Under the pieces are notes generated by a model. The model ran no database searches. It saw only the letters and a list, made by a program, of their open reading frames with translations, and was not told the DNA's origin. From Thermoplasmata archaeon (lineage in GTDB: Archaea; Thermoplasmatota; Thermoplasmata; Lutacidiplasmatales; UBA184), in the NCBI GenBank assembly GCA_049285595.1, contig JBAQAF010000036.1, positions 21,910-85,909 of the forward strand: a stretch of 64,000 nucleotides of DNA, in the 5' to 3' direction. Shown one piece after another: positions 14,036-64,000 of the stretch; the stretch's first letter is position 1; the number at the start of each line of letters is the position of its first letter. Both the position numbers and the translations under genes were made by a program.

Positions 14036-14036
14036 G

Positions 14037-42240: not shown

Positions 42241-45200
42241 CTACCGAGGGGGGGTCGCCCCGGGAGCGTCCGAACCTTCGTCCGGGTCCTCTTGCCAGGG
42301 GGGACGGGCGGCCGCGGCCGGCGCGGCGGCCGTCGGGGAGACCGGCCCCGCAACGTACGGTGTCACGGGTGCCGCAGGCGGCGGCCGACGCCGAGAGAAC
42401 GCCGCGACCAGGAACCCGAGTACCGCGAGAACGGCCAGGCCGGCGATCAACGCCCAGCCGACGAGAGGGATTCCCCAGGGACCCGTCGCCGACGTCGTCG
42501 GAACGGCCACCAGAACGATATGGAGCTCGGCGGTGGTGCCGCTGAGGACGCTGACATTCTCGTAGAACGTCACATACCCGGGCGCCTCGACGACCACCGA
42601 TTGGATCCCGGGAAGCTGCGAGGTAAAGAAGCCCAGTCCGTGGAGGGGAACGAGGCTGGCGTCGATGTACACGTAGGCGCCGGCAACGTTGACCGTGCCG
42701 TCAAGTATCCCATAGACGATCGAGAACTGCAACGAGACGGTCGCGAACGTCGAGCTATTCCCGATCCCCGCGGAGGGAGTGACCGTGTAGTTCGCGGCCG
42801 TGGCCGTCCATGCGTACGCTCCCGCGGGGAGCTCAAAGACGGTGAGGTTGAGGAACTCACCGGTGGAGATGTAGCGCTGATCGAACCCCGGCCCGGTGAT
42901 CTCCACCGACCAGGATCGGGGAGCTCGACCGACGAACGACTCGTTGAAGGTGACGGCGGGCTGGAGGAGAAAGGCGATGGGGGGGACCGTCGCGCCGTCG
43001 TTCCCGACCACGACCGTCCCATTCGGGGTCGATGTGTTGTACCCCCGCGAGCTCGTGTTCCAAGTATACGTTCCCGGATTCACTTCGAACACGATCGTCG
43101 CACGGGTGGAATTGATGGTCGCGAGGAACGCGGGGCCGCCGAGCCCGATGCTGACGTTCCAGGTCCAGCCCGGCAGGATGCCACCTTCTACGAACGTGAG
43201 CGCGACGAGCGGCGTGAAGAGGATCGTCACTTCGGTACCTGTGCCGTTCACAGTGTAGTTCCCGGCCGTGGCGCCGGTATAATTGCTCGGGAGCAGGACC
43301 GTGTAGTTGTAGGTCCCGTTCGGCGAGTAGAGGGTCAGGCTCGTCTGGTTCGTGCGGTACTCGACGCCCTGGACCTCGACCCCCCAGACGACACCGCTCG
43401 CGAGGCCGAGCTCGTTCACGTCGACCGCGAACGCCATCGAACGGACGAGCGGCACGAAATCTCCCTCGTACGTGATGCGATCCCCGTCGTTGTACGGCAG
43501 GCGGCCGAGGGGGTTCGCCGCGGTCCCGTAGTTGGACCAGTAGTTGCCGCCCTGGTACGTCGTCCCGATGATGCTCCCCGATAGGTTGGATCCGAGGACG
43601 GTGTCGATCGTGTCGGCCGGCGCGGAGGGTACGTTCCACCGGTCCTCGTAGACGACCGCGCTGCAGAGGATCTCGCACGACACCGGATCGATCGTCGGGG
43701 TGTACGCCGGCGCGGGGAGGGCGAAGTAATTGTTGTAGATCAGGTCCCCGGACTCCGCCTCCCAGATCCCGGTCGTATTGTTCCCCGAATTCTCGACCGC
43801 GCTTTGGTTCGTCGCGGGCGCGGTGGAGTTGAGGAAGCTGTTGCCCCAGATCGTGTTGTGCGATCCGCCGTAGAGCGCGAGGGAGATCCCCTGGTCGTAG
43901 AAGGTGTTCCCCGCGACCAGGTCTCCGGTCGCGTTCCACAGGATGACCGCGCCGAGGGGGCTGAAGCCGACGTTGGCGGAGAGCCAGCCGCTGATCCCGG
44001 GAGAGTCCTCGAGCGTGAGGTTCGTGACGTTCCAGAACTCGGCCTGGAGGTGGTTCGCTCCCGGGAGCCCCGCCCCGGAGAGGTTCGCCGCGACGTCGGC
44101 GGAGTAGACGATCGCCAAGCTCGGTGGGGTGACGTGGACGAACGAATGCGTGTCGATCAGAAGGATCCCGGGGAACACGGGGAAGAAGTAGTCGTTCATC
44201 GCTCCAAAGATCGCGTCGATCGGGTGCGGTTGGTTCGACTCGAGGATGTACGGGCTGGCCACGGTCCCGGCACCAGACGCCGCGAGGTCCGACAACTCCG
44301 TGTCCCCCCAGGCAACGAGGGGCGTGTAGATCCCGAGCGCGTTGGAGCGGACCATCGTGGCGGTGATCGAACCGGTCGAGTTGCCGACCGGGTTGAACGA
44401 GCGGTGGATCGGGCGGAAATCGCTAAGCATCCACTCAAAGTAGAAGTTTCCGACGTCCGGGAACGCGACGATCGCGGGTCCCGTGGTGAAACCCAGCGTC
44501 GGGACCCACTGCGCGGAGCGGGGGTTCAACGCCGTCCCCGGGGTTACGAATAGGAAGGCGTTCGCCGGGGTGACCGCCGCGGAAAGGGTCCGGTAGCCGG
44601 GGTGCCCGGAGAGGTTCCACAGACCTCCCAGGAACGACGGACCGATCACCAGGTCGGCGTGAGGGATCGTCGCGCCTCCTGCCGTCGTGTTGTAGAAGAC
44701 GGCGACCCCATCGCTCGTCTCGCCCGTGTCGGAGCCGGCGTCGTACGCGGAGGGAACGGGGGCGTACGCGCTCGCGCTCGAATTCCATGTGTCGAGCGAG
44801 AATTGAGCGTTCAGTCGGACGAACGTCGTGGTGTCCCCGTCCCCGTCTCCGACGAGGACGAGCTCGAGGTCGTTCGGTAGACCCAGCGGGTCGTTGGCCG
44901 TGCCGTTCGCCTGGAACTGGGGTACCGGGGCCGCGAAGATCGGGGGCAATCGATCGGAGTTGAACACGACGTTGTCGAACGTGCCCGACGCGTGAACCGA
45001 CGGGGCCCGGAGCGTATAGTTGAAGAAGATCGCCGGCCGATTCCCGACGTCCGTCGCGTTGAGGTAGAACGTCACGGTGAACGGATAGTGAACCGTGAAC
45101 GTGGGGCCGGTCGCGTAGTAGAAGATCGGGGCGAGGAGCGTCCCGTTGGCCCCGTGGGAGTGGAAGACGTTCGACGAGATCAGGCCGGCAGGGCTCGACA

Positions 45201-45813
45201 TGTTCCAGATGTTGTCGCCGAATGTCAGCGTCCCATTGCTCGAAGTGTAGCTCACGAAGTTCTGGGCCCAGAACTCATAGCTTGACTTCCCGAACAGCTC
45301 GACGTGCGTGGCGACGGCGTTCATCTGAACGCCGAAGATGTCGGGGCCATCGCCGTCCAGATAGACCGACTGTGCGCTCGTGATGGCCGCGGTGCCTTCC
45401 ACGCTCGTGGTGTTGAGGACGGTCGGGGTGACGGTCCCGGATTCGTTCTCCAACCCCAGGTCGGCGACCCCCATCGGAGCGGGGGCAAGGTCGTACGTCG
45501 GGGCTACGGGTCCGACCCGGCCCGGATCCGCTGCCGCGAGGTTCGGGAGGTGGGCATCTTGGAACGGCACCCCGCGCTCGCGAAGCGTGGTCTCGATCGC
45601 GCCGATGCGGGCCTGCGCCGACGGATGGGCCGATAACTGGGGTCGAGCGGCATCGGACGGAGGTACCGCGGTGGACGGAGTCGCACGCGGGGTCCCGACC
45701 CACGCCGGTCCGGGAACCAACAGCAGCACGACGATCGCGATGACCGGGACGATCCAGAGCGAACGAGTGCGACCCACGGAATCTCGAAGAGGGCGACGCG
45801 GCCGCTTCCTCAT
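42241..45813 (-). CDS. Giant surface protein: thermopsin (peptidase A5)-like domain, parallel beta-helix repeats, beta-sandwich modules, C-terminal TM anchor and Pro-rich tail
   Basis: 1190 aa. N-terminal anchor LWIVPVIAIVVLLLVPG. Thermopsin-like segment PAPMGVADLGL...NTTSVEGT...FGVQMNAVATHVELFG...YEFWAQNFVSY. Beta-helix segment GNTFYDQGISLALYGGSHNTIWGNSF. Modules LTFVEGGILPGWTWNVSI and VTFNESFVGRAPRSWSVEI. C-terminus GWALIAGLAVLAVLGFLVAAFSRRR plus a P-rich tail. The thermopsin call is from memory of the family pattern. Confidence 0.75.
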   Translation of the reverse strand: MRKRPRRPLRDSVGRTRSLWIVPVIAIVVLLLVPGPAWVGTPRATPSTAVPPSDAARPQLSAHPSAQARIGAIETTLRERGVPFQDAHLPNLAAADPGRVGPVAPTYDLAPAPMGVADLGLENESGTVTPTVLNTTSVEGTAAITSAQSVYLDGDGPDIFGVQMNAVATHVELFGKSSYEFWAQNFVSYTSSNGTLTFGDNIWNMSSPAGLISSNVFHSHGANGTLLAPIFYYATGPTFTVHYPFTVTFYLNATDVGNRPAIFFNYTLRAPSVHASGTFDNVVFNSDRLPPIFAAPVPQFQANGTANDPLGLPNDLELVLVGDGDGDTTTFVRLNAQFSLDTWNSSASAYAPVPSAYDAGSDTGETSDGVAVFYNTTAGGATIPHADLVIGPSFLGGLWNLSGHPGYRTLSAAVTPANAFLFVTPGTALNPRSAQWVPTLGFTTGPAIVAFPDVGNFYFEWMLSDFRPIHRSFNPVGNSTGSITATMVRSNALGIYTPLVAWGDTELSDLAASGAGTVASPYILESNQPHPIDAIFGAMNDYFFPVFPGILLIDTHSFVHVTPPSLAIVYSADVAANLSGAGLPGANHLQAEFWNVTNLTLEDSPGISGWLSANVGFSPLGAVILWNATGDLVAGNTFYDQGISLALYGGSHNTIWGNSFLNSTAPATNQSAVENSGNNTTGIWEAESGDLIYNNYFALPAPAYTPTIDPVSCEILCSAVVYEDRWNVPSAPADTIDTVLGSNLSGSIIGTTYQGGNYWSNYGTAANPLGRLPYNDGDRITYEGDFVPLVRSMAFAVDVNELGLASGVVWGVEVQGVEYRTNQTSLTLYSPNGTYNYTVLLPSNYTGATAGNYTVNGTGTEVTILFTPLVALTFVEGGILPGWTWNVSIGLGGPAFLATINSTRATIVFEVNPGTYTWNTSSRGYNTSTPNGTVVVGNDGATVPPIAFLLQPAVTFNESFVGRAPRSWSVEITGPGFDQRYISTGEFLNLTVFELPAGAYAWTATAANYTVTPSAGIGNSSTFATVSLQFSIVYGILDGTVNVAGAYVYIDASLVPLHGLGFFTSQLPGIQSVVVEAPGYVTFYENVSVLSGTTAELHIVLVAVPTTSATGPWGIPLVGWALIAGLAVLAVLGFLVAAFSRRRPPPAAPVTPYVAGPVSPTAAAPAAAARPPWQEDPDEGSDAPGATPPR

Positions 45814-45932
45814 AGAGATTTGGTCCGAACTCGAGAGCCCTCACCGCGACGGGATCGGGGGGGACTCCTGCTTCAGACTCGTTCGACCTCGGCGGCGCTG
45901 GACGAGGGCGCTCGTCCCGCCGGAGAGAGAGC

Positions 45933-46736: not shown

Positions 46737-46801
46737 GACCTTCCCCCGGGTTCTTAAACGCTCCGTCGAACGAGAACCGGGCGGCGCGCGGCCTCCGAGC
46801 G

Positions 46802-47311: not shown

Positions 47312-47319
47312 GAACGCTC

Positions 47320-47730: not shown

Positions 47731-47750
47731 GAACGTCTTGAGCGCGGCGG

Positions 47751-47759
47751 CCTATTTGG
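47751..47759 (-). promoter_or_regulatory. TATA-like box for msrB
   Basis: The minus strand reads gCCAAATAGg, ~25 nt upstream of GTG 47730. Confidence 0.4.
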
Positions 47760-47820
47760 CGGGCTCGGCTTCGATGGGGGTCGCTCCCGGGGGCCGTGGC
47801 CACCATCCGAGCGTTGTGGG

Positions 47821-47828
47821 GTTATATT
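47821..47828 (+). promoter_or_regulatory. TATA-like box for the YVTN-repeat gene
   Basis: gGTTATATTcg lies ~25 nt upstream of ATG 47850. Confidence 0.45.
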
Positions 47829-47849
47829 CGCGCGGGGTTCCGACGAACG

Positions 47850-50744
47850 ATGTCGACCTCGACAGCACGCCGACCGTTATCCGATTCCCGCATTTCGCTC
47901 CGTTCGGTATCGTTCTTGCTGCTCGCGGCGGTGGTCGTGAGTCTAATCGCTTCCGCCGGCGCGGGAGTCATGGCGATGCCTCACCCTTCGGTCGGAGGCC
48001 CGTCCCCCGCGGGGTCCCTCCCATCCTCCGTTCGCTCTACGCCGACGGTTCGCTCGCCGTCCGCGAGCGCAGTGGTCGCCGTGGACGACCTGCTGACGGA
48101 CACCGTCACGACGGGGAACAACCTCCCCTCGGAGCAGTTCGATCCCCAGAGTGGAGTCTACGACGCCGGCAATGGCAATTTCTACATCCGAGGGAATTCG
48201 GGACAGACCCTCTCCGTCGTCAACGGCACCACGGACCGCGAGGTCGCGGTCCTCCCGGTCTCGGCCGCTGAGGCCGACTACGCCCAAGTGCCGAGCCTCG
48301 CGGTCGATCCGCTCTACGGCACCGTGTTCGTCACCAATAGCAACCCCGGAAACGTCTCCGTGATCGACGGCGCCACCGAATCGGTGGTCACCTCGATCCC
48401 GGTCCTCGGGGAACCGACCGGTATCGTCGCCGACCCGACGTCCGGGGATCTGTTCGTCGCCGATTCCTCGCTGAGAAACGTCACGGTGATCTCGGGGCTG
48501 ACCAATTCGGTCATCACACGGATTCCGGTCGGCACCGAGCCGAACGGGATCATCTACGACTCGACCGACCACCTGGTGTTCGTCGCGAACTTCGGGTCGT
48601 CGAACGTCACCGTGATCGACGCGGTGACGGACGAGGTGGTGACCAATCTCGCTACCGGTCACGAACCGCTGGCGATGGTCTGGGACCCGACGGACGACTA
48701 TCTCGATGTCGCGAACTACGGCGGGTCGAGCGTCTCGATCTTCTCCGCGTCGACGGGCGCGCTGCTGTGGACGTACCCGCTCGGCTCGGGGACGCCGATC
48801 GACCTCACCTACAGTCCGGCCGGCGATCGGGTCTTCGTCGTGAACTTCTTCTCGAACAACGCAACGGTCATCGACCAGTCGCCGTACGGCGGGGATGGCA
48901 GCCTCGCGCTGCCCGGAACTCCGCAGTGGGCGGCGTACGACCCGACCGACCAGCACGTCTTCGTCGCCTGCCCGCAGTCGTACGCCGTCAGCATCCTCGC
49001 CGCCTCTCCGGCCGGATATGTCAGCAACGTCACGATCCCCGACTTCCCGACCGCCGTCCTGGTGGACACCGCGAACGGACGTGCCCTGTCGGTCAACACC
49101 GGATCCTCGTCGGTCGATGCCAACGCGACCGTCCTCGACCCGACGACCGATCTTCCGATCGCGAACATTCCCCTCAGTCTCAATCTCGCCGGGATCACCG
49201 ACGACCCAACGCTGTCGACCCTCGAGGTCGCGGACGAGTACGGGAACAGCGTCTTCGGCCTGGCGGCGTCGACCGGCCTCGACGCGTACTTCGACCGCGT
49301 GGGGAATCTGCCGATCGCCTCCGCGTACGACTCGAAATCCGGGAACCTGTTCGTACTGAACCGGGAGGGCTCGAACGTGAGCACGATCGGCCCCGCGGGT
49401 ACGATCGTCGGAAGCCTCGCGACCGGCGATCTCCTGACCGGGGTCACGGTCGATACTCGGACCGGGGTCGTGTACGTGAGCTCGGACGAGGGGAACGTGA
49501 CGGTGATCGACGCCGCGAACCCGACGGTCCGCACGTCGATCCTCATCGGAGCGGATGTCTCCCTCGGGTCGGTCCTCTACGATCCCCACTCGAACGAAGT
49601 GTACGTTTCGAACTGGGAGAACGGCACGATCGCGGTCATCGACCCCGCCACGAACTCGACCGTGGGCCCGGCCATCCCGGTGGGTTCCGAGCCAGCGACG
49701 CTGACGTACGATCCCGTCAACCAGACCGTCTTCGTCGTGAATCAGGGCTCCGGCAACCTGAGCGTGATCGACACCGCCACCGATGCGGTGGCGCGCACGG
49801 TCGCCTCCGCGGGGACGACCGCCCTCGTCTTCGACCCCTCGAAGAACGCGATGTATGCGGTCGGCGAGTACACCCCGGTGGTCACCGCCGTCAACGCCTC
49901 CACCTACGTGAGTCTCGGCGCAGGTCTGGAACTCGGGAACGTCCTCGTCGGAGGGATCGGCTACGACCCGTCGGACCACCGCATCCTCGTATCGGACATC
50001 TACAACGGGTGCCTCCTCGAAGTCGGAGCGCCTTCCTCGAGCCCGAGCGACTATCCGATCACGTTCACCGAATCCGGCCTCGGGGCCGGCACATCGTGGT
50101 CGATCACCCTCACCTCCGTCGCGACGATGAGTTCCGTCACGTCCACGATCGACTTCTCCGAGCCGAACGCCACCTACGACTTCACCCTCGGCGCGGTCGC
50201 GGGGTACGTCGCGCTGACCCTCCCCGGAAACGTCCTCGTGAGCGGCGCCCCGGTCACGCAGGCGGTCGACTTCTACGCGAAGTTCGGTGACACCCTCGCG
50301 TCCAACGCGAGCACGATCGTACTCGGAGGCTCCGTGACGCTCACGACCTCGCTCACCGGCGGCCTCTCCCCGTACACGTTCGTCTACAGCGTTCCGGCTC
50401 CGTGCGAGAGCGCGAACACGCCGTCGATCGTCTGCACCCCGGCGGCGCTCGGAACGTTCCACGTCCACGTGAACGTCACCGACCAGCAGGGCCAGGTCCG
50501 GATGGCGAACGCAACGTTCACCGTCCAGTCGTCCGCTCCGTCGCCGACGAGCCCGAAATCGAGCCTGCCTACATGGGAATGGTTCGGCCCGCTTCTCCTG
50601 GTCATCGCGGCCCTCCTCGCCATCGCCGTGTGGTTGACGCGTCGGCGCAAGAAGGAGGAGCCCGCCGCCTCGGTCCCGCCTCCGTCGGGCGGCGCGACGA
50701 ACCTGCCGCCGCGCTCCGGTAACGGGAACGCGCCGCCGCCGTAG
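47850..50744 (+). CDS. Giant surface protein with YVTN-family beta-propeller repeats, shared beta-sandwich module, C-terminal TM anchor and Pro-rich tail
   Basis: Signal/anchor VSFLLLAAVVVSLIASAGA. Many ~42-aa repeats are present (P.G.vyD...g.vFVaN..s.NVtVID..t..Vv..I.vG), for example FVTNSNPGNVSVIDGATESVVTSIPVLGEPTGIV. Module ITFTESGLGAGTSWSITL. C-terminus LLLVIAALLAIAVWLTRRRKKEE plus a P-rich tail. The start is trimmed to ATG 47850 by promoter geometry. Confidence 0.85.
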   Translation: MSTSTARRPLSDSRISLRSVSFLLLAAVVVSLIASAGAGVMAMPHPSVGGPSPAGSLPSSVRSTPTVRSPSASAVVAVDDLLTDTVTTGNNLPSEQFDPQSGVYDAGNGNFYIRGNSGQTLSVVNGTTDREVAVLPVSAAEADYAQVPSLAVDPLYGTVFVTNSNPGNVSVIDGATESVVTSIPVLGEPTGIVADPTSGDLFVADSSLRNVTVISGLTNSVITRIPVGTEPNGIIYDSTDHLVFVANFGSSNVTVIDAVTDEVVTNLATGHEPLAMVWDPTDDYLDVANYGGSSVSIFSASTGALLWTYPLGSGTPIDLTYSPAGDRVFVVNFFSNNATVIDQSPYGGDGSLALPGTPQWAAYDPTDQHVFVACPQSYAVSILAASPAGYVSNVTIPDFPTAVLVDTANGRALSVNTGSSSVDANATVLDPTTDLPIANIPLSLNLAGITDDPTLSTLEVADEYGNSVFGLAASTGLDAYFDRVGNLPIASAYDSKSGNLFVLNREGSNVSTIGPAGTIVGSLATGDLLTGVTVDTRTGVVYVSSDEGNVTVIDAANPTVRTSILIGADVSLGSVLYDPHSNEVYVSNWENGTIAVIDPATNSTVGPAIPVGSEPATLTYDPVNQTVFVVNQGSGNLSVIDTATDAVARTVASAGTTALVFDPSKNAMYAVGEYTPVVTAVNASTYVSLGAGLELGNVLVGGIGYDPSDHRILVSDIYNGCLLEVGAPSSSPSDYPITFTESGLGAGTSWSITLTSVATMSSVTSTIDFSEPNATYDFTLGAVAGYVALTLPGNVLVSGAPVTQAVDFYAKFGDTLASNASTIVLGGSVTLTTSLTGGLSPYTFVYSVPAPCESANTPSIVCTPAALGTFHVHVNVTDQQGQVRMANATFTVQSSAPSPTSPKSSLPTWEWFGPLLLVIAALLAIAVWLTRRRKKEEPAASVPPPSGGATNLPPRSGNGNAPPP

Positions 50745-50777
50745 ACCGGGGCGGGCCCGGCGTCGGCCGCCGCCGGC

Positions 50778-53258: not shown

Positions 53259-55322
53259 CTAAGCGTCGAGCCGGGGTGGGGTCGCGGCGGGCTCCCAACC
53301 GCCGCCGCCCCCGCAGTGGTGACCGGAGCCCTGGCTGGAGAACCGGATGCGGACGTCCTGGTCGTGGTGGGAGATCGTCACCGTGCCGGAGCTGGGGGAG
53401 GCGGAGTAGCCGGTGACGGGGGTGACCGTGAACATGTAGGTTCCGCTCGAGAGTCCCGAGATCACGATGTCGCCGCTGCTCGAGCAGTAGCTCGAGCCGA
53501 CGTTCACGCACCAGATCGTGCCCCCCGGCAGACCGCTTTCGTGGAACGTGAGAGTAAACGTGGTAGGCGTCGGAGACCCCTTGCCAAACGTCACGCTGAC
53601 CGTCACTGCGGCGCCCGCGATCGTCACGGGAGAGGCGGGTGTTTCCGAGGTGACCGAAAAGCCGTTCGGGCCGGAGACCGTGTAGGTGTACGTCCCGTTC
53701 GGCTCGGCGAACTGGATCGAGTCGGTGGTACTGCTCCGCGTCGTGTTCCCGACGGTCACGCTCCACGCCGTGGACTGGCCGCACATTCCGCTCAAGCCGG
53801 TCTCCACGAACGTTAGATCGAAGGTGGCGCTCGAAGAGGCTGCGAACGTCACGTCGACGACGACCGGACCGGCGCCCACTGTGACCGGGGAGGCAGGTAC
53901 GGCCTCGACCACGTGGTAGCCCACGGGCCCCCCGGGCGTGTAAGCATACGTCCCCGGGAGTTTCCCGAAGAGGATGGACGCGGAGGTCGTGGTGAGCGTT
54001 CGGGCGCCCAGGGCCACCGACCAAGCGCTTCCTGCCGGCAGGCCGGTCTCGTTGAAGACGACGGCGTAGGCGGTCGCGATGACACTGACGTTGTGCGAGT
54101 CGGAGTTCGGGACGTAGACGTAGGTGTTGGCGGTATCGTAGACGGTCGACGAGGGCTCGTGCCCGACGGTCACGTTCCCGAGGTCGGAGGTACCCTCGAC
54201 GATCGTCACTTCCGATGCGCCGAGATCCGTCACGTACACGAGGTCGGTGAAGGCGTCGTACGCCGACCACCCCGGGCCAGCCCCCGTGGCGACGTTGGCG
54301 ACCCAGGTCGTCCCGTCCAGCACGCTCACATCGCTCTCGTTCGAGTTGCTGACGTACAGATCGCCGTTCGCCGGGTCGAATAGGACGAAGGACGGGTTCG
54401 CGCCTGTGGTGACGTTCCCGACGCTCGAGTCTCCGTCCACGACCGTGACGTTCCCACTCTGATTGTTCGCCGCGTAGACGTCTCCCGAGGACGGGTCGAC
54501 CGCAAGGGCATCGGGTTGACCGCCGACTCCTACGGTGCCGACCATCGATATGCCGTCGAACACGGTCAGGGCCGAAGCGCCGTGGTCGGCGACGTAGACG
54601 TAGCCGTTGGACGGGTCGAACGCCACCGCGCCGGGATCTTTCCCTGTAGCCAGATTCGACACGAGCGCCGTGCCGTTCAAGATCGCCACCTTGTTCGCAC
54701 CCGATTCGGTGACGTAGACATCCCCGTTCGCCGAGTCGTACGCCGCGGCGCTGGGAAGGAGCCCGATGGTCACGGTCGTCAGGAGCGTCGTCCCATTCAG
54801 GATGCTGACCCCGCCGCCGGGGGTCTCGAAGAGGTAACGGTCGACGACGTACACGTAACCGTTCCCCGGATCGTAGACTTCGTAGGTCGGATCCCCCACG
54901 GTCACGCTCGGGGTGCTGAGCGCGACGTTCGCCACGACCGTCGATCCGCTCAGAACCGAGACGTTGTTCGAGATCTCGTTCGCGGCGTAGACATAGCCGT
55001 TGCCGCTATCGAATGCTATCGGGACCGGACCCGAACCGACGGGCACCGAAGCGAGGACCTGGGGCGGGACCTGTTCGAACGGGGGGAGGTGCAGCGGCAC
55101 GAAATTCGGCGTCGCCGCGGCGTGGAAGGGGGTCGGGGCCGTGAGCTCCCGAACGGGAGAAAAGTAGGGGGTGGTATCGAAGCCTGCGGTCGGCCCGGTC
55201 GAGGCGATCGGCGCGGCCTGGGTCGCGGGAATTAGGGCGGTCAGCGAGAGGGCTAAGACCAGCGCGGAGACCCAGAGGACCCCCCTCGCTGCGGCGTTCC
55301 GTTCTACCCGGGAACCGAACAT
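53259..55322 (-). CDS. Secreted YVTN beta-propeller repeat protein with three shared beta-sandwich modules
   Basis: Signal GVLWVSALVLALSLTALIPATQA. YVTN repeats include YVYAANEISNNVSVLSGSTVV and YVADHGASALTVFDGISMV. Modules VVFNETGLPAGSAWSVAL, LTFVETGLSGMCGQSTAWSVTV and LTFHESGLPGGTIWCVNV. No C-terminal TM helix. Confidence 0.85.
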   Translation of the reverse strand: MFGSRVERNAAARGVLWVSALVLALSLTALIPATQAAPIASTGPTAGFDTTPYFSPVRELTAPTPFHAAATPNFVPLHLPPFEQVPPQVLASVPVGSGPVPIAFDSGNGYVYAANEISNNVSVLSGSTVVANVALSTPSVTVGDPTYEVYDPGNGYVYVVDRYLFETPGGGVSILNGTTLLTTVTIGLLPSAAAYDSANGDVYVTESGANKVAILNGTALVSNLATGKDPGAVAFDPSNGYVYVADHGASALTVFDGISMVGTVGVGGQPDALAVDPSSGDVYAANNQSGNVTVVDGDSSVGNVTTGANPSFVLFDPANGDLYVSNSNESDVSVLDGTTWVANVATGAGPGWSAYDAFTDLVYVTDLGASEVTIVEGTSDLGNVTVGHEPSSTVYDTANTYVYVPNSDSHNVSVIATAYAVVFNETGLPAGSAWSVALGARTLTTTSASILFGKLPGTYAYTPGGPVGYHVVEAVPASPVTVGAGPVVVDVTFAASSSATFDLTFVETGLSGMCGQSTAWSVTVGNTTRSSTTDSIQFAEPNGTYTYTVSGPNGFSVTSETPASPVTIAGAAVTVSVTFGKGSPTPTTFTLTFHESGLPGGTIWCVNVGSSYCSSSGDIVISGLSSGTYMFTVTPVTGYSASPSSGTVTISHHDQDVRIRFSSQGSGHHCGGGGGWEPAATPPRLDA

Positions 55323-56340: not shown

Positions 56341-56362
56341 CTAGGGAAAGGTTTGCCCGACG

Positions 56363-59300
56363 TTACGCCGCGGATCCCCGGAGCACGGCCAACCGGGCCG
56401 TGGCAGGGAACAGGTCCGCACCGCCGGAGTTCACCGGCACGTGGTGGGCAGGAGGCGTGTAGACGCAGACCAGCGCCACCGACGCCCCGCTCCCCGAGAT
56501 CGCCTGGCTCCCCGAGGTGGGCGTGCAAACGGTGTGCGCAGGGGGCAGCACGGTGAACGTGTACGTCCCGTTCGGCACCATGAATCCCAACGACGCGCCC
56601 GTGGTGTAGACGGTCCTCGAATGGATCCCGTGGCCGTTGACGGGCCCCGTGATCCGGACGCCCCACCGCTTCCCCGGCTGAACTCCCGTCTCGCTGAACG
56701 ATAGCGAGTAGGTCACGAGGTGGAAGCGGACGTGCAGCGCGGTGGACCCCGCGATCGTCAGCGCACCGGCGGAGGGGCTGGGCGAGTAGCCGGGGACCCC
56801 GGGCACGGTGAACGTATACGACCCGTCGATCACAACGATCTGGGCGGACGTTCCCGTGACCTGGATGGTCTGACCGAACGGATCGGTCGTGGGCGACGTC
56901 CCGGCGATGACCACGCTCCAGGAGGAGCTGGGGGGCAGGCCGGACTCGCGCACCGTGAGGAACGCGTAGCCGGTCGCGAGGCGATAGGTCACGCCGACCG
57001 TGATCGGGTGGTCGGTCAGGTGGAACGTCCCGGAGTGCGCCGTGTAGCCGACGGGCACAACGGGCGACCAAGCGTAGCGTCCAGGCGCCGGGAAGACGCT
57101 CAGGGTGATGAAGTTCGAGGTCGTGTTGAACGACACGACGTTCGACCCGACCGTGATGTCGAGGCCCCAGGCGGTGCCCGGAACGAGGCCGTGCTCCACG
57201 AACGTGACCGCCGGTCCGACGTTCGGCACGAGCGGGGCGAAGTCGCCGCCCGCGTAGATGTAGCTGAAGTAGTAGTAGGACGGCCCGTAGATCTCGACGA
57301 TCAGGGTGAGCGCGTTCTCATCGTACGGCAACTGGGCGTAGGGGTTGTTCGCACCGTTGTACGGGTTGAAGGCGAGCCCATAGTCCCACCAGAAGTTCCC
57401 GCCCTGGGTCGCCCCCCCGATGATGCTCCCGCTCAGGGGCACGTTCGGGAAGCCGGCCGCGTAGTGGACGATCGAGGCGGCCTGCGGGGAGATGTTCCAG
57501 CTGTTCGTGACGTAGTAGAACGGATAGCCCGAGTACATGTTGAGCGGCAGCAGCCACGCGGTGGTCGGCGTGTTGAAGCTGTTGTCGTAGATCAGGTCGC
57601 CGTCCTCCGCGAGTTGTAGACCGATGCCGAACACCTGGTCGAACAACCCTTCGCAGTTCCCGACGTTCGGGCAGCTGGCCGGTTGGGGGGTCTCGGTGAA
57701 CGTGTTCCCCCAGACCGTGTTGTTCCCGCCCGCCGTGTTGACGGGTCCGAACAGGGTCCCGCCGTCGAACATCAGGAGCGCCTGGCTCTGCGTGTCAAAG
57801 TTGTTCCCGGCGATCAGGTTGTCGCTCGAGCCGTAGAAGATGACGTTGAACGAGTCGAAGCTGATCGGGTACCACGCGAAGTTCGTGAACCAGCCCGAGA
57901 TGTTCGCAGCGTCGACCAGCGCGACCCCCGAGACGTTCCAGAACCAGAGCTGCAGGTCGTTGGTCTGGGGCAGCTCGTCGCCCGGGAACTGGAAGTCGTT
58001 CGTCGCGGCCGAGAAGTTCGCCGGCTGGAACAGCTCGGTCGAAACGGTCGTTCCCATCAGGAATACGCCCGGGAAGACGGGGAAGCCGTAGTCGTTGTAG
58101 AGCCCGAAGTCGGACGAAAGGGCCGCGCTCTGGTCGTTCGGCATCATGTACGGGCTCGCCGACGTTCCGGAGCCGCTCGTCGCCAGCGCAGCGACTTCGG
58201 CGTTCGAGAACGCCCAGAGGGGGGTGTAGACGCCGAGCGCCATGTCCGAGGACAGCGTCACGGTGAGCGTCTGGGGACCCGCGACGGTCAGAGACTGCGA
58301 GTCGGGGTCGAAGTTGGAGAGCTCCGTCAGCAGGGTATACGACCCCGGCATCAGGTAGAGGGTGCTCGCTGCGATCGTCGGAGCGAACTCGGATTCCGCC
58401 ACGATCGGGGTGCTGAAGCCCGCCGCCCCGTTGTACTCGAGGAAGTTGAACGCGTTCGACGGGGTCACGGCGAGCGTGATGGCGTCCGAGCCTTCGGGAG
58501 CGCCCGTGCCCCAGAGCCCCGACAGGATCGAGGGGCCGGTCGTCATCGTCCCGTACTCGGCAAGGCCGCCCGGTCCGCCGGGGGCGTTGCTCCATGCAAC
58601 GTTCGCGCCGGTCGCCGTCTCGCCGGTCTCGCCGCCGTAGTTGTACGCGGCAGGGACCGCCACGAACGTCCCCGAGGAGAGGTAGGAGAGACCGAGGGTG
58701 GCGTCCGCCGCCCCGAGGTCGACCTGGCTTCCCCCGCCGGGACCGCAGATGTCGAGCTCAAAGTCGTTGGTCAGGCCCACCGGATTGTAGCTCTCCCCGT
58801 TCGCCGTGTAGTTGGACGGTTGGGTGAGGGGTCCAGGGAAGCCGACGTTGGTCGAGTTGAAGATCGCGTAATCCCAGTTCGGGGCGGAGAAGTCCTCGCC
58901 GGGGATGGCACTGCTCACGAGCGAATCGCTGAAGCTCATGTTGTCGCGGCCCGCGTTGATCCCCGAGTTCATCGTCAGGGTCAGGTCGAACGGATAGTAG
59001 ACCGGGAACGGAACGACGAGTTCGGCGTAATAGTAGCCGAGCTCGCCGTAGTAGTTGGTGCCGTCCGGGCCGTGCTCGTAGAACTCGTTCCCGACGTACG
59101 ACCCGCCCGAGAAGTTCCAGATGTTCGTGATGAGGACCATGAACCCCGAGGACGGGTAGTATTCGACGACGTTCTGGGTCCAGTACGAGAAGCCAGACTG
59201 TCCGAAGAGCGTCACGTTGGTCAGGACGGAGTTGAGCTGGATGCCGTAGCTGTCCGGAGAGCTCTGATAGAGATCGAGCCCCTGGATGCCGGTCGCGTTG

Positions 59301-59767
59301 GCGTCGACCGTCCCTTGGACGGCGGTGGTGTTCAGGATCGTGGCGATCGGCGATCCCGTTCCCGTCCCGCTCAGACCGTAGTAGGCGACTCCGATCGGGG
59401 CCGGATCACCCGAGTAGAGGGGAGTGACAACCCCGCTCTCGCGCGCCTGGGCCTCCTGGGCAAGGTCCGCCGAAGGTCGAGGGAGGAATACGACGTTGGA
59501 CTTCAGGCCCGCCGCCCGTGTGGCGGCCAAGGCGTTCGCGGCCATGGCGGAAGCTACGTTCGAGCCACCGATGCTCACGTCCGCGCGCGAATTCTCGAGC
59601 GAAGGCGGAGCGGCGGCCTTGCTCACCGGAACGATTGCCGTGCTGGTCGCTCCCGCATGGCTCGGCGACGCCGTGGCGGGTCCGCCCACCAGGCTGGTCA
59701 CTCCCAAACCCATCCATCCGACTACGGCAAAGGCAACTACCGCCAGAACTAGTGCTTTCGACTCCAA
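56363..59767 (-). CDS. Giant secreted protein: thermopsin (A5)-like domain, beta-helix repeats and three shared modules; paralog of 42241..45813
   Basis: 1134 aa with TTG start. Signal ALVLAVVAFAVVGWMGLGV. Thermopsin-like segment PAPIGVAYYGL...NTTAVQGT...YGIQLNSVLTNVTLFG...FSYWTQNVVEY. Beta-helix segment GNNFDTQSQALLMFDGG...NNTVWGNTF. Modules VTFVEHGLVPGTAWGLDI, LTVRESGLPPSSSWSVVI and LSFSETGVQPGKRWGVRI. No C-terminal TM helix. Confidence 0.75.
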   Translation of the reverse strand: MESKALVLAVVAFAVVGWMGLGVTSLVGGPATASPSHAGATSTAIVPVSKAAAPPSLENSRADVSIGGSNVASAMAANALAATRAAGLKSNVVFLPRPSADLAQEAQARESGVVTPLYSGDPAPIGVAYYGLSGTGTGSPIATILNTTAVQGTVDANATGIQGLDLYQSSPDSYGIQLNSVLTNVTLFGQSGFSYWTQNVVEYYPSSGFMVLITNIWNFSGGSYVGNEFYEHGPDGTNYYGELGYYYAELVVPFPVYYPFDLTLTMNSGINAGRDNMSFSDSLVSSAIPGEDFSAPNWDYAIFNSTNVGFPGPLTQPSNYTANGESYNPVGLTNDFELDICGPGGGSQVDLGAADATLGLSYLSSGTFVAVPAAYNYGGETGETATGANVAWSNAPGGPGGLAEYGTMTTGPSILSGLWGTGAPEGSDAITLAVTPSNAFNFLEYNGAAGFSTPIVAESEFAPTIAASTLYLMPGSYTLLTELSNFDPDSQSLTVAGPQTLTVTLSSDMALGVYTPLWAFSNAEVAALATSGSGTSASPYMMPNDQSAALSSDFGLYNDYGFPVFPGVFLMGTTVSTELFQPANFSAATNDFQFPGDELPQTNDLQLWFWNVSGVALVDAANISGWFTNFAWYPISFDSFNVIFYGSSDNLIAGNNFDTQSQALLMFDGGTLFGPVNTAGGNNTVWGNTFTETPQPASCPNVGNCEGLFDQVFGIGLQLAEDGDLIYDNSFNTPTTAWLLPLNMYSGYPFYYVTNSWNISPQAASIVHYAAGFPNVPLSGSIIGGATQGGNFWWDYGLAFNPYNGANNPYAQLPYDENALTLIVEIYGPSYYYFSYIYAGGDFAPLVPNVGPAVTFVEHGLVPGTAWGLDITVGSNVVSFNTTSNFITLSVFPAPGRYAWSPVVPVGYTAHSGTFHLTDHPITVGVTYRLATGYAFLTVRESGLPPSSSWSVVIAGTSPTTDPFGQTIQVTGTSAQIVVIDGSYTFTVPGVPGYSPSPSAGALTIAGSTALHVRFHLVTYSLSFSETGVQPGKRWGVRITGPVNGHGIHSRTVYTTGASLGFMVPNGTYTFTVLPPAHTVCTPTSGSQAISGSGASVALVCVYTPPAHHVPVNSGGADLFPATARLAVLRGSAA

Positions 59768-60256
59768 GATCCCCAGCCCCCTGAGGCAGGGCCGCAGAGT
59801 CGTATCCTCGTATAACCTTTCAGGGAGCGATCCGGCTAGAATTCATAGCGTTCCGAACCGCCTGGCTCCCCGCGCCCCTTGAAGAAGGACCCCAAAGAAC
59901 GCTCTCGTCCATGGGAAGCATCGGGCCGAGGGGCGGTGGAATCAGGCTGCGGCCCCTCCGGACGAGGAAGGGGCGATGCTCCGTTGGCTCGCGATGCATC
60001 GGTCGCAACGGCCCACTCCGTTCGCCGTTGAGACCGTAGGCGCTCCGAGCGGGTTGGTCTCCTTTCGGGCTCACAGGCTGTTCGCTCAGGCGGAGGGAGC
60101 CGGCGGCCCGTCCGGGTGAGCGTCCGTTCTCTCTTCTCCGTCGTGGAGCGGGAGCTGGTTGAGTATCATTTGTCAGAAACGTTCCTAAGTCGTAAGTAGC
60201 CTCATTCCGGTCCCAACGAAGTGCCTCCGCACGGCGGGGGTCGTTGGAAACAGGTC

Positions 60257-63200
60257 ATGTCGAGTTGGAGTCGGACCATCGGAGTGTTCGCGTTGTTGAT
60301 CCTGATGACGCTCGGGTTTGGCGTGGGAGCGATCGCCGGGGAGGCGTTCTCTGCCCCGACGTCGGCTCACGCGGCGGGGTTCTCCGTGAGCGAGCTGTTG
60401 CAACCTTCGATCGGGTGGAGCGTCGCTCAACTGAAGGCGTCCGCTCCCACCGCTGCCCCCTACGACGAGCCTGGCCTCGACCTCTCGGGCGCCGCGTATC
60501 TCGGCGCTCCTCACCTCTCAACGCCCGCGAATCCCGCGGGCTCGATCGACCTACTGATCACCCTGGCGTTCTCGAACGAGTCGCGGTTGAACGCCCTACT
60601 CGCCTCCCTCTCGAACCCCTCCTCCGCTCAATACCATCACTACCTCACCGCGAACCAGTTCAACGAACAGTTCGGGGCTTCGTCGGCGGTGTACAACTCC
60701 CTCGACAGCTACCTTGCATCGTTCGGTGTGAGCGGTTTGACGACCCACCCCGATCGGCTCGCCCTGTCGTTCGAGGCGACTCCGGCGCAGGTCCAGTCGA
60801 TCTTCCACACCACGCTCGGCGCCTACGTCTCAGCCACCGGCCTGCCGTTCTATGCGCCCCGAACCGCCCCCGCGCTCCCGTCCCTCCTCACCCCCTACCT
60901 CGTGGACGTCGAGGGGCTGAGCAACTACTCGCAGTACGAGAACCACCTCGCGCCGATCGCTTCGTTGGAGGCGTCCGCCGCGGCGCTCGCGGGCGACGCG
61001 GCGACCGGTGGAGCGATCCACGCGGTCAGCGCGATCAACCCCCACGAGACGCCGCTCTCTCCCGGCGGCGCGAGCAATCCGTTCGCGAGCACGACCGTCA
61101 CCTCGAACGGTCTGACGAACTCCTACGACCAGCCCGTGATCCTGAACCTGAACGGCAAGAGCGGCACCTGCGACACGAACGACTGCGGTGAGTTCGTGCA
61201 GGCCCCGGACCTCCAGGTCGCCTACAACGAGACCGGTCTGTTCCAGCAGTACGGCTATCCGGTCAACGCGACGGTCGCCGCGGTCCTCTGGTCCGATACG
61301 ATCTGCCACGCCAATACGGGAACGTGCAGCGCCGACGCGTACTACAACTACTACTGTTCGACCCTCACCTCGGGAAGCGCCGCCTGGGACTTCTTCATGC
61401 CGGACGTGAATTCGTTCTGGAAGTACTCGATCCCGGCCGGCGAACCGATGCCGCGGGCCGTCTCGATGCCGATCACCGGCTACACGTATGCCTACCCTAC
61501 CGGTTCGCAAGGGTACTCGGCGTCCTGCGATGACGCCGAGGCCGAAGGAGAGAACACACTGGACGTCGACATGCTGGGGGCAATGGCCCCCGGCGCGAAC
61601 ATCTTCCAGGCGTTCGGAGGATCGTCGAGCAGCACGGCGATCGACACGGTCGTGGCGGATATCTTGAGCCCGGCCACGGCCGAGTTCTCGACCACGGGCG
61701 GCTTTGACACTGCGGCCAACGTCGGGGACCTCACGAACGTCAGCGTCATCAGCAACTCCTGGACGACGTCGGGGACGCTCCCGGCGGCGTTTACCACCGA
61801 CCTCAAGACGGCACAGGCCCGAGGGATCACCGTACTCGGAGCCACGGGCGACTCGGGAACGGCCTTGGCGCCGCCCGCCGAGATCGGTGCGAACACCTAC
61901 GGAACGGTCGCCGTCGGCGGAACGACGGACGCGTTCAACACGACGACCCTCCTGCGGGGAGCGCCCCACCTCGCTTCGGCCGCGGCTCCGTACTACGGCG
62001 TCGGGCGGGGAGAGATCGGCTGGTACGAGCCGAGCGGAAAGGTCGACGGGTTTACCAGTACGTATGGTGGTACGGGCGGGGTCGCCACCTCCACCACCTA
62101 CTACCGAGCCTCCTGGGTCAACGGCTCGAGCGACGCCCTGGGCGTAGCGAACGCCGTGCGAACCGGGAACTACCGACCCGCGCCGGATGTCTCCGCCATC
62201 GCCAACGACACGATCGTGGACCTGGACGCCGGACCGTACTCGCTGAACTTCACCTGCTGGATCACCACGAGTTGCACCGCGACCTCGTCGATGGCGGTGG
62301 GCGTCACTTCCGGTTCGGCGCCGACCGTCGGAGGTACGTACTTCATCGGCACCAGTATCTCCGCCCAGGTCGTCGCGGGCGAGATCGCTACGATCGACCA
62401 CTCGCTCTACACGCAGCACCAGGGGTGGCTCGGCTTCCTCGACCCGGCGGTCTATCCGATGGGTCAGAAGCAGTACGGCAGCGACCTGTCCCTCAAGTCG
62501 TTCTACGACGTCACGACGTACACCGATGCCGGCGGTCTGACCGCCAACTACGAAGCGAAGGTCGGCTACGATCTGGCCACGGGCTGGGGAGTTATCGACC
62601 CCGGAAACTATACCCGCAACACGCTGACCCACCCGATCACCTTCACCGAGTCGGGACTTCCGAGTGGGACCCACTGGTCGGTGACGCTGACGCCCCGCGT
62701 CGGCGATGCCAGTTGCACCGTGAGCGGCTCGGTCTGCACGAATCCGACCGTGACGTCCTCGACGACATCGACGATCGTCTTCAACGAGGCGTACGGCACC
62801 TTCGGGTACAAGATCAACCTCGTCGCGGGGTACTCCCCAGCGCCCGCCTCGGGGACGGTCACGGTGAACGGCGTGGCCGTCGGTGTGAGCATTGTCTTCA
62901 GCCAGGTCACGTACGCGGTCTCCTTCGGCGAATCCGGGCTCCCGTCCGGCACGCTCTGGACCGTTACGCTGAGCGGCACCCCCCACAGTTCGACGGGAAC
63001 GACGATCTCGGTCAGCGAACCGAACGGGACCTACGGCTACTCGGTCGGCGGAGTCGCCGGATACTCGGTGAGTCCGTCGTCCGGCTCGGTCACGGTGAAC
63101 GGAGCGAGCGTATCGACTGGGGTCGTCTTCAGCCCGACGACGTACTCGGTGGCGTTCAGCGAGAGCGGGCTGCCTTCGGGACAGACGTTCAAAGTAACGC

Positions 63201-64000
63201 TCGGCGGAGTGCCCGAGTCGCTCACGACGAATGGGGGAACGGACACCCTTTCGTTCGCCGTCGCGAACGGCACCGACGCCTACACGATCGCCGGCATCGC
63301 CGGTTTCAGTCAGGCGACGCTCCCGGCCAGCGGAAACGTCCTGGTCAACGGAGCCGCGGTGACCGAACCGACGCTCGTCTACACCCAGGTCTCGTATTCG
63401 GTGACGTTCACCGAGAGCGGACTCCCGGGGGGAACCTCCTGGACGGTCACGCTCAACAGCCTCCCGGCGAGCTCGACGGGAAGTTCGATCGGCTTCTCCG
63501 AGCCGAACGGGACATACGGCTTCGCCGTGAGCGGCGTTGCCGGCTACACGGCGTCCCCGGACGCGGGCTCCGTCACGGTCGACGGCGCGGCGACCGACGT
63601 GGCGATGGTCTTTACGCCCGTGTCGTACGTCGTCGCGTTCTCCGAGAGCGGCCTGCCTGCTGGGACGACGTTCCAGGTCACGCTGAACTCCGCGCCGGAG
63701 TCGATCGTGACCGACGGCAGTACGGACACCCTCTCGTTCTCGGTCGTGAACGGCAGTTACGGGTATGCGATCGCGGGTATCTCGGGCTACCACCAGTCGA
63801 CCCTCCCCGGGACCGGAACCGTGGTCGTCGACGGTTCGTCCGTCAGCGAACCGACGCTTCTCTATGGATCCGTGACCTACTCGGTCGGGTTCACCGAATC
63901 CGGCCTCCCCTCGGGGACCCTCTGGTCCGTGACGCTGAATGGGGACACGGAGAGCTCGACGGGGGTCTCGATCGGGTTCTCGGAGTCGAACGGGACGTAT
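60257..64000 (+). CDS. Sedolisin (peptidase S53, kumamolisin-like) pre-pro-enzyme with a long C-terminal array of shared modules; 3' end runs off the window
   Basis: Absent from the ORF track (no stop in the window). My translation from ATG 60257 gives the signal MSSWSRTIGVFALLILMTLGFGVGAIAGEAFS. The pro-kumamolisin-like activation domain reads LITLAFSNESRLNALLASLSNPSSAQYHHYLTANQFNEQFGAS...VQSIFHTTLGAY. The catalytic domain has DLQVAYNE, GENTLDVDMLGAMAPGANI, the Ser motif YFIGTSISAQVVAGE, and the Ca-site-like GYDLATGWGVID. At least 6 modules follow from 62636. Confidence 0.88.
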   Translation, partial: MSSWSRTIGVFALLILMTLGFGVGAIAGEAFSAPTSAHAAGFSVSELLQPSIGWSVAQLKASAPTAAPYDEPGLDLSGAAYLGAPHLSTPANPAGSIDLLITLAFSNESRLNALLASLSNPSSAQYHHYLTANQFNEQFGASSAVYNSLDSYLASFGVSGLTTHPDRLALSFEATPAQVQSIFHTTLGAYVSATGLPFYAPRTAPALPSLLTPYLVDVEGLSNYSQYENHLAPIASLEASAAALAGDAATGGAIHAVSAINPHETPLSPGGASNPFASTTVTSNGLTNSYDQPVILNLNGKSGTCDTNDCGEFVQAPDLQVAYNETGLFQQYGYPVNATVAAVLWSDTICHANTGTCSADAYYNYYCSTLTSGSAAWDFFMPDVNSFWKYSIPAGEPMPRAVSMPITGYTYAYPTGSQGYSASCDDAEAEGENTLDVDMLGAMAPGANIFQAFGGSSSSTAIDTVVADILSPATAEFSTTGGFDTAANVGDLTNVSVISNSWTTSGTLPAAFTTDLKTAQARGITVLGATGDSGTALAPPAEIGANTYGTVAVGGTTDAFNTTTLLRGAPHLASAAAPYYGVGRGEIGWYEPSGKVDGFTSTYGGTGGVATSTTYYRASWVNGSSDALGVANAVRTGNYRPAPDVSAIANDTIVDLDAGPYSLNFTCWITTSCTATSSMAVGVTSGSAPTVGGTYFIGTSISAQVVAGEIATIDHSLYTQHQGWLGFLDPAVYPMGQKQYGSDLSLKSFYDVTTYTDAGGLTANYEAKVGYDLATGWGVIDPGNYTRNTLTHPITFTESGLPSGTHWSVTLTPRVGDASCTVSGSVCTNPTVTSSTTSTIVFNEAYGTFGYKINLVAGYSPAPASGTVTVNGVAVGVSIVFSQVTYAVSFGESGLPSGTLWTVTLSGTPHSSTGTTISVSEPNGTYGYSVGGVAGYSVSPSSGSVTVNGASVSTGVVFSPTTYSVAFSESGLPSGQTFKVTLGGVPESLTTNGGTDTLSFAVANGTDAYTIAGIAGFSQATLPASGNVLVNGAAVTEPTLVYTQVSYSVTFTESGLPGGTSWTVTLNSLPASSTGSSIGFSEPNGTYGFAVSGVAGYTASPDAGSVTVDGAATDVAMVFTPVSYVVAFSESGLPAGTTFQVTLNSAPESIVTDGSTDTLSFSVVNGSYGYAIAGISGYHQSTLPGTGTVVVDGSSVSEPTLLYGSVTYSVGFTESGLPSGTLWSVTLNGDTESSTGVSIGFSESNGTY
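62636..64000 (+). repeat. Tandem in-frame module array inside the S53 gene; exact 483-bp (161-aa, two-module) periodicity from 62918
   Basis: Module starts, read in frame: 62636 ITFTESGLPSGTHWSVTL; 62918 VSFGESGLPSGTLWTVTL; 63149 VAFSESGLPSGQTFKVTL; 63401 VTFTESGLPGGTSWTVTL; 63632 VAFSESGLPAGTTFQVTL; 63884 VGFTESGLPSGTLWSVTL. The spacings are 282, 231, 252, 231 and 252 bp. An A-type (GTxW) and a B-type (TFxV) module therefore alternate as a 483-bp unit. Confidence 0.85.

Follow-up and report, generated by a model that had tools for sequence, protein, structure and literature searches.

What is the repeat that otherwise unrelated surface proteins of a Thermoplasmata archaeon have in common, and what does it do there? 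The question is raised by a stretch of 64,000 nucleotides from contig JBAQAF010000036.1 (called the window below, always at its full length), in whose last 22 kb a sequence-only reading had placed five very large genes, here G1 to G5, each with a hydrophobic N terminus and with copies of one module that it could not assign. All five are open reading frames (ORFs) at the proposed positions, and an N-terminal hydrophobic segment is present in every one of them. We find that the module is a complete domain of 76-94 aa and not a short motif of G, S and T, and that its recurrence is far beyond chance. We propose that it defines an unnamed family of prealbumin-class beta-sandwich arrays, which probably act as a semi-rigid stalk or spacer for the heads that they carry.

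The copies within the window were counted with a profile built from those of G5 and iterated over the 653 six-frame ORFs of at least 50 aa. This gave 16 module copies, three each in G1, G3 and G4, one in G2 and six in G5 (the sixth cut at base 64000), with a profile coverage from positions 1-2 to 75-77 and i-Evalues of 8e-15 to 3e-30; the iterated profile found no module copy in any other ORF of the 64 kb. One full-length module is thus shared by the five genes as had been proposed, all the peptides quoted for it are present, and the count of six in the sedolisin gene G5 holds. G1 carries its copies on the (-) strand at 43207..43434 (76 aa; i-Evalue 5e-23), 42961..43206 (82 aa; 3e-21) and 42715..42960 (82 aa; the most divergent copy, 1e-17 after iteration), and the single copy of G2 lies on the (+) strand at 50049..50282 (78 aa; 9e-27). 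Those of G3 are found at 53835..54071 (79 aa; 4e-24), 53577..53825 (83 aa; 3e-25) and 53331..53561 (77 aa; 3e-28), and those of G4 at 56975..57217 (81 aa; 9e-20), 56714..56968 (85 aa; 4e-21) and 56450..56713 (88 aa; 6e-23), all on the (-) strand. The G5 array, on the (+) strand, begins at 62627..62908 with a copy of 94 aa that has a 17-aa insert (2e-25), and continues at 62909..63139 (77 aa; 1e-28), 63140..63391 (84 aa, with F replacing W at the T-x-W position; 1e-23), 63392..63622 (77 aa; 3e-30), 63623..63874 (84 aa; 4e-22) and 63875..64000 (the first 42 aa of the sixth copy, found by the iterated profile, the rest being cut by the window end).

From 62909 to 64000 the G5 modules alternate between a 77-aa form with T-x-W and an 84-aa form with T/Q-T-F and a longer loop. 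The alternation makes up a two-module super-repeat of 483 nt, which farther along, in locus L080, gives way to runs of 77-aa copies; in this locus the array goes on past the window to at least 11 full copies. A public contig (Logan, SRR27943675) matches the window with 100% identity along 13.3 kb and extends 1.3 kb beyond it, with at least 11 full module copies in G5 and a gene call of 2019 aa. In a DNA repeat search the nucleotide identity among the module copies was 63-77%, and Tandem Repeats Finder detected no tandem array of DNA that corresponds to them. We conclude that the copies are ancient and have been preserved as protein sequence, and the same two results rule out an assembly artefact or a recent amplification as their source.

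The G1-G5 proteins are strongly rich in S, T, G and N, and a shared motif in such surface proteins could in principle be a coincidence of composition and not a domain. The sequence-only reading had itself raised the case that the copies have only a short low-complexity G/T/S motif in common; put to the profile, they proved to be a full-length domain. The coincidence is already refuted, and we give it next to no probability: the matches span the full 77-position profile with i-Evalues down to 3e-30 and fall in only five genes among the 653 ORFs, the structural model of the module reaches a pLDDT of 98, and thousands of proteins contain the module with its W, E, G, N and Y residues at fixed places. 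Lysine makes up 0.2-0.8% of G1-G5 and Ser plus Thr 17-25%, with 1.2-3.1 sequons per 100 aa compared with 0-0.45 in neighbouring non-surface proteins; this composition is typical of exposed acidophile proteins.

A sequence family without a name and its fold

An exhaustive HMMER search of 1.84 billion representative proteins returned 7,689 clusters at E<=1e-3, of which 5,904 remained at E<=1e-10 and 3,249 at E<=1e-30. The consensus of 2,161 near-complete copies reads TYxVTFxE[ST]GLPxGTxWxVxL ... IxFxEPNG[TS]Yx[YF]xV ... GY ... PxSGxVTVxG ... [IV]xFxxV, and its most conserved positions are W17 (97%), G10, L11 and G40 (96%), F6 (93%) and E8 (90%). We scanned the Pfam-A (2025) and NCBIfam 20.0 libraries at E<=10, both with the whole proteins and with 15 separate copies, and no model of either library reached its threshold on the module. 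The sub-threshold Pfam matches were each confined to one of the 15 copies (SpaA, E 0.01; SpaA_2, E 0.12; K319L-like_PKD, E 0.016; PLipase_C_C). None of the 15 copies reached the gathering score of PF05738, PF17802 or PF19403, and none had a Pfam match to CarboxypepD_reg (PF13620) or PEGA (PF08308). An identity as a PKD domain was rejected, its sole trace being the K319L-like_PKD match in one copy. Homologues that consist of little else than modules lack a precomputed Pfam domain and bear the public name 'hypothetical protein', and others are named by their head only (e.g., 'YVTN family beta-propeller protein', 'protease pro-enzyme activation domain-containing protein' or 'phospholipase C'). 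Judged by these libraries, the module is a sequence family of its own with neither a Pfam nor an NCBIfam model, in agreement with the earlier failure to place it in a named family. The suggestion that it might be undescribed or under-annotated stands in the latter sense, but the module is not structurally new, its fold being prealbumin/CnaB-like.

The fold was modelled with AlphaFold2. The single module, for which the alignment consisted of just the 15 copies from the window, gave an all-beta sandwich of eight strands (pLDDT 98.1, pTM 0.85), as the sequence-only reading had expected, and a di-module gave two sandwiches with a 2-residue junction (pLDDT 93.7, pTM 0.69). In Foldseek comparisons with the PDB, the single module found nothing at E<=1e-3, its top matches having E>=0.04; the best of them (TM-score 0.59-0.72) belong to a single fold class and were a streptococcal ancillary pilin, CnaB/SpaA pilin domains and the B-repeats of SdrD (TM-score 0.72), together with the middle domain of rhamnogalacturonan lyase and with transthyretin-like domains of carboxypeptidase D/N (TM-score 0.56-0.65). 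The di-module matched SdrD A2-A3-B1-B2 at E 2.3e-6, over B1-B2, and the TIE protein of B. anthracis at E 4.8e-6, followed by SpyCEP, PitA, GBS52 and SpaA pilins; its 12 matches at E<=1e-3 are mostly pilins, MSCRAMM B-repeats and related Gram-positive surface proteins. The Foldseek check proposed with the sequence-only reading therefore recognised the fold class through the di-module, but not at E<=1e-3 through the single module. Weak profile matches to PDB sequences are of the same fold class (FbaB CnaB2, E 0.035; SpaA-like domains, E 0.04-0.1). On the strength of the models, we regard the predicted membership of the module in the prealbumin/CnaB/transthyretin-like fold class as established, and the module as a new sequence family of known fold.

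The closest structural parallels are CnaB-type or SpaA-like repeats (SdrD B1-B5, pilins, TIE; PF05738, PF17802), with which the module has in common its fold class, tandem arrays, very short linkers, a placement between head and anchor and a central G-x-Y ... G-Y motif. It differs from them in staying below the Pfam thresholds, in being archaeal and acid-adapted (K about 1%), in having a transmembrane-helix anchor instead of a sortase motif, and in its own signature E-[ST]-G-L-P-x-G-T-x-W with a conserved N-G-[ST] sequon. It also differs in lacking the conserved Lys of a Lys-Asn/Asp isopeptide: Lys accounts for 0.98% of module residues and is among the three commonest residues in no profile column, and the conserved Glu8 has no Lys partner. 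Without a conserved Lys column an isopeptide bond is impossible, and so the module is not a strict CnaB domain; a CnaB/TIE-like isopeptide or ester cross-link was ruled out on the lack of a conserved Lys or Gln.

PEGA, CarboxypepD_reg and transthyretin-like domains (PF13620, PF08308, PF13715) resemble the module in size and fold, and a PEGA-type domain directly follows the last module in G1 and in many thermopsin homologues. The module profile weakly touches the PEGA-type domains of two proteins (P0311, E 0.009; P0324, E 0.0016), and in hhalign the module and seven PEGA/CarboxypepD_reg-like domains of the same proteins align over 53 columns with their motifs in register (probability 26%, pairwise E 7e-4). 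These domains nonetheless have a separate profile, with P-G-x-Y where the module has N-G-[ST]-Y, and lack the E-S-G-L-P-x-G-T-x-W opening.

The taxonomic spread of the family was surveyed by a genomic scan over one genome per prokaryotic species, with a pattern from a 4-copy alignment, the best 80 of 431 confirmed stretches being kept. Nearly all of these best 80 of 431 come from metagenome-assembled genomes (MAGs) of Thermoplasmata/Thermoplasmatota from soil, peat and mine drainage, and the remainder from Cuniculiplasma sp. SKW4 and from a small number of MAGs whose sole title is 'bacterium'. In the 79 loci of this set we counted 633 module copies in 113 ORFs. Homologues of a 593-aa chimeric query belong to Thermoplasmata wherever the source named an organism, and a homologue search with the module profile, which favours targets near the query length, gave nine short proteins only. 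The viral contigs scanned had no module copy, and the thermopsins of S. islandicus and Acidianus retrieved by a search that favours targets of query length are short and without the module. The closest relative, the MAG SMAG_U15158, has a G5 orthologue of 79% identity with 16 modules. Sedolisin orthologues differ in module number, with 9 in L008, 16 in L001 and 21 in L003, the window gene having at least 11. The window has a GC content of 66-70%, and this value and the protease set resemble those reported for the acid-soil order Lutacidiplasmatales (PMC9287336).

Heads, arrays and anchors

G1 (42241-45813, (-)) encodes 1190 aa with a signal or anchor segment, a thermopsin head, a beta-helix region, its three modules, a PEGA/CarboxypepD_reg-like domain, a transmembrane anchor and a cytoplasmic tail. 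The thermopsin (A5) domain lies at 44704..45501 (-), aa 105-370 (PF05317, E 5e-56, 190.4 bits, model 7-256/256). The PEGA/CarboxypepD_reg-like domain occupies the interval between the last module and the transmembrane helix at 42499..42711 (-), with sub-threshold matches to PF08308 (E 0.006) and PF13620 (E 0.03), and domains of this G1 type score above the PEGA cut-off in homologues. Read from a TTG start, G4 (56363-59767, (-)) encodes 1134 aa that comprise a signal peptide, a thermopsin head, a beta-helix-like middle and three modules; its A5 domain lies at 58607..59428 (-), aa 114-387 (PF05317, E 7.5e-40, 137.5 bits, model 5-255/256). Both thermopsin matches are far above the cut-off of 25 bits and cover nearly the whole model. 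In the public annotation G4 begins at an ATG that lies 18 codons downstream, and the resulting protein of 1116 aa lacks most of the N-terminal hydrophobic segment; from the TTG (59714-59767, (-)) a complete signal-like segment is obtained. The middle of G1 and G4 (about aa 375-850; window 43771-43950, (-)), between thermopsin and modules, is a region of ~400 aa with weak NosD or parallel beta-helix matches, and a middle region of this type is conserved jointly with the thermopsin head in homologues.

G2 (47850-50744, (+); an upstream GTG at 47796 is a possible alternative start) encodes 964 aa with a signal or anchor segment, a YVTN propeller region, one module, an unassigned domain of ~80 aa and a transmembrane anchor. 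In the interval between its module and the helix lies, as in G1, one beta-rich domain of ~75 aa (50337-50564, (+)), which in G2 has no Pfam match and which phmmer found in five family representatives. G3 (53259-55322, (-)) encodes 687 aa with a signal peptide, a YVTN propeller and three modules, and its protein has an identical record in a public assembly. The YVTN repeat TIGR02276 (cut-off 27.85) scores 122.8 bits over five stretches in G2 and 37.1 bits over three stretches in G3, and the Pfam and NCBIfam scans gave lactonase-type propeller matches in both. G5 (60257->64000, (+)), which the window end cuts, begins with a signal peptide and a pro-kumamolisin activation domain at 60521..60925 (+), aa 89-223 (PF09286, E 2e-24, 86.7 bits against a cut-off of 23.5), followed by a sedolisin (S53) catalytic region at approximately 61406..62581 (+) and the module array. 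The catalytic domain had no match in the single-sequence Pfam scan; a profile of the region from four orthologues aligned with kumamolisin 1gt9 at E 1.2e-7. In this alignment Glu78, Asp82, Asp164 and Ser278 of kumamolisin, its Ser-Glu-Asp triad and oxyanion Asp in the usual numbering, face identical G5 residues in GE-NTLD, GDSG and GTS. The predicted heads, thermopsin-type (A5) in G1 and G4, sedolisin-type (S53) in G5 and YVTN propellers in G2 and G3, are those that the sequence-only reading had named.

Hydropathy scans place a C-terminal transmembrane helix in G1 at 42391..42477 (-), followed by SRRR, and in G2 at 50574..50645 (+), followed by RRRKK, so that an Arg/Lys cluster comes directly after the helix in both. 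The same scans found no C-terminal transmembrane helix in G3 or G4, whose C-terminal ends are formed by the modules. Among 150 representatives of the family, 112 begin with a hydrophobic segment and 95 end in a transmembrane helix, with a basic cluster after the helix in 95/95; the longest stretch outside the modules lies N-terminally in 80 and C-terminally in five. The modules are strung head-to-tail, essentially without linkers, in arrays of 1 to 44 copies. The protein with 44 copies has 3552 aa, and another has 10 copies in 932 aa.

Within the window alone the same domain is combined with two thermopsin, one sedolisin and two YVTN heads, as had been claimed. The idea that it is shuffled among two protease heads and a propeller proved correct as to the shuffling and too narrow as to the set: heads across the family comprise YVTN propellers, thermopsin with beta-helix, sedolisin, Kelch and phosphoesterase/phospholipase C, as well as alpha/beta-hydrolase (esterase), sortilin-like, beta-helix and PKD-bearing heads and several without a Pfam match. 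The layout of G2 recurs in a Cuniculiplasma sp. SKW4 protein (L045), which combines a signal peptide and a YVTN propeller with a single module and a transmembrane helix.

Layouts of this kind have been described with other domains. The multi-domain thermopsin-like proteases of Saccharolobus solfataricus also have a signal peptide, a head, tandem beta-sandwich repeats of ~80 aa and a C-terminal membrane anchor (PMC3958906); SsMTP has PKD and Y_Y_Y domains, and SsMTP-1 (SSO1175) has two unnamed 'internal repeats' of ~79 aa (PMC3958906). PKD is, however, another family, to which the module has no match. YVTN proteins of COG3391 are annotated as S-layer candidates in Picrophilus and in plasmas of acid mine drainage (AMD), with no description of the module (PMC5155288, PMC3750248). 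G2, G3 and L045 resemble these putative surface proteins in having YVTN propellers with a signal peptide, and G2 and L045 also in the C-terminal transmembrane helix; for G2 and G3 the likeness is one of propeller family and layout only. In a survey of family A5 (PMC3842238), a word search found no occurrence of 'repeat', 'C-terminal', 'extension', 'PKD' or 'domain architecture'. The module family is new at the sequence level, and its fold and probable role, that of a tandem stalk, are of a known kind.

A stalk, a binding module or a coat

The most likely function, by analogy with B-repeat stalks and from the architecture, is that of a stalk. In this proposal the array would sit between an extracellular N-terminal head and, in most members, a C-terminal transmembrane helix with its basic stop-transfer cluster, and would keep a head with a catalytic or binding function a defined distance away from the cell membrane in an acidophile without an ordered wall, much as CnaB-type B-repeats carry the A-domain of Gram-positive adhesins. 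Each module would be N-glycosylated at a conserved NG[ST] hairpin, and the module proteins would supply much of a disordered ~20-nm exterior layer on Thermoplasmatales that have no S-layer. The stalk reading is the best supported because of the placement of heads and anchors, the linker-free arrays, the variable copy number and the significant resemblance to B-repeats. The stalk or display role suggested by the sequence-only reading likewise fits the position of the module, across the family, in the interval between N-terminal head and C-terminal transmembrane anchor. As for the glycan, an N-x-S/T sequon stands at profile column 39 in 82% of the 2,161 copies, in the turn joining strands 4 and 5 of the model, and the mean number of sequons per module is 2.8; an N-glycan on each module at this hairpin is plausible on these grounds. 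PEGA-type domains have P-G at the equivalent turn.

Several observations weigh against the stalk reading or parts of it. G3 and G4 end in modules without a transmembrane anchor, which fits a spacer poorly and would fit a binding module. With a di-module pTM of only 0.69, the models leave the relative orientation of the modules, and thus their rigidity, not established. The tie to named prealbumin-fold families is weak both in the single-module Foldseek values given above and in the sequence evidence for homology. N-G-[ST] could be conserved for the beta-turn and not for glycosylation. Finally, the taxonomic range is biased toward close relatives by the narrow pattern and by the choice of the best 80 of 431 matches.

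The anchor-less ends of G3 and G4 lead directly to the main rival explanation, in which the module would be mainly a binding domain for carbohydrate, protein or mineral, similar to a carbohydrate-binding module or an adhesin repeat, with arrays raising the avidity for polymers or envelope glycans; in G3 and G4 the terminal modules would then tether the enzyme to the cell surface. This explanation, which we consider unlikely, would also account for members that are nearly all modules (those with 10 copies in 932 aa and 44 in 3552 aa), and it can draw on structural neighbours that serve in binding or regulation (the middle domain of rhamnogalacturonan lyase and the regulatory domains of carboxypeptidases) and on the eight conserved aromatic positions Y2, F6, W17, F35, Y42, Y/F44, Y52 and F74. 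The conserved residues, however, follow the alternating pattern expected for a sandwich core plus turn glycines, heads of unrelated activity suit a generic spacer better than a common ligand, and the transmembrane anchor directly follows the array in most members.

The length of the arrays and the great abundance of the family are also what would be expected if the modules made lateral homotypic contacts, so that the arrays themselves built a cohesive coat standing in for an S-layer. Thermoplasmatales do have a dense exterior layer, whose components are unnamed in the relevant part of PMC12448462, and YVTN-type surface proteins are annotated as putative S-layer proteins in Picrophilus and AMD plasmas (PMC5155288, PMC3750248). 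Such a coat appears very unlikely to us: the layer seen by cryo-electron tomography is explicitly non-crystalline in the same part of PMC12448462, the present analysis gave no evidence of a module-module interface, and the heavy predicted glycosylation would tend to oppose a tight packing of the proteins. The stalk reading remains the one that we prefer.

Gene neighbourhood and the exterior layer

The claim that the five genes form an island and are kept together is weakly supported. In its favour, the divergent arrangement of the thermopsin and sedolisin genes is also conserved in the genome of the closest relative, and at least two module genes lie within 12 kb of each other in 11 of the 34 related loci with full flanks, a frequency that may or may not exceed chance. 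On the other side, unrelated genes are interspersed among G1-G5 (a MOSC-domain gene, an unassigned 311-aa ORF, an M1 aminopeptidase of cytoplasmic type and a small OB-fold gene), and with uniform placement the chance probability of five genes falling within 22 of 64 kb is ~0.05 (P = n r^(n-1) - (n-1) r^n, with n = 5 and r = 22/64).

The M1-family aminopeptidase (50778-53180, (-); 800 aa; Peptidase_M1_N, Peptidase_M1 and ERAP1_C, without a signal peptide) is flanked by the two YVTN genes; it is our guess that it acts downstream of the extracellular proteases, on imported peptides. A sixth surface protein (4044-6680, (-); 878 aa) combines a signal peptide and a Kelch-type propeller head with three or four PKD domains and a C-terminal transmembrane helix followed by RRRRK; its layout is that of the module proteins, with a stalk of PKD domains and no module copy. 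Elsewhere in the window, a fluoride riboswitch (RF01734; 26083-26146, (+); 47.2 bits versus a gathering score of 34) overlaps the 5' end of the stop-to-stop ORF span 26100-27299, a Na+/H+ exchanger-family gene (PF00999). The region at ~6700-14200 has a GC content of 0.61-0.64 versus 0.66-0.72 elsewhere, and none of its ORFs shows the high third-position GC that the other genes usually have; it may be foreign or mobile DNA.

The module proteins can also be set beside what has been reported of the cell surface in this group. Cryo-tomography of Cuniculiplasma divulgatum and Oxyplasma meridianum showed no S-layer and a dense, non-crystalline exterior protein layer of ~20 nm, and genome-wide searches uncovered no S-layer-like genes, according to the part of PMC12448462 that describes the layer, where its component proteins are unnamed. 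Module proteins are natural candidates for the exterior protein layer of these S-layer-less Thermoplasmatales. A broader view, possible but doubtful at present, would make the module a lineage-specific envelope building block of Thermoplasmata, with thousands of anchored array proteins, bearing an N-glycan per module, forming the disordered ~20-nm layer that replaces an S-layer and carrying the extracellular acid proteases.

Since Cuniculiplasma and Oxyplasma are cultured, and Cuniculiplasma encodes the module, the makeup of the exterior layer becomes testable, and the conserved sequon marks a precise position at which archaeal N-glycosylation at low pH could be studied. Because the module is nameless in Pfam and NCBIfam, much of the surface proteome predicted for Thermoplasmata carries either the label 'hypothetical' or a name taken from the head alone. 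Defining the module family would correct this annotation and would provide an easily used marker of extracellular and envelope proteins for a class whose members, acidophiles of soil, peat and mine drainage, are mostly uncultured.

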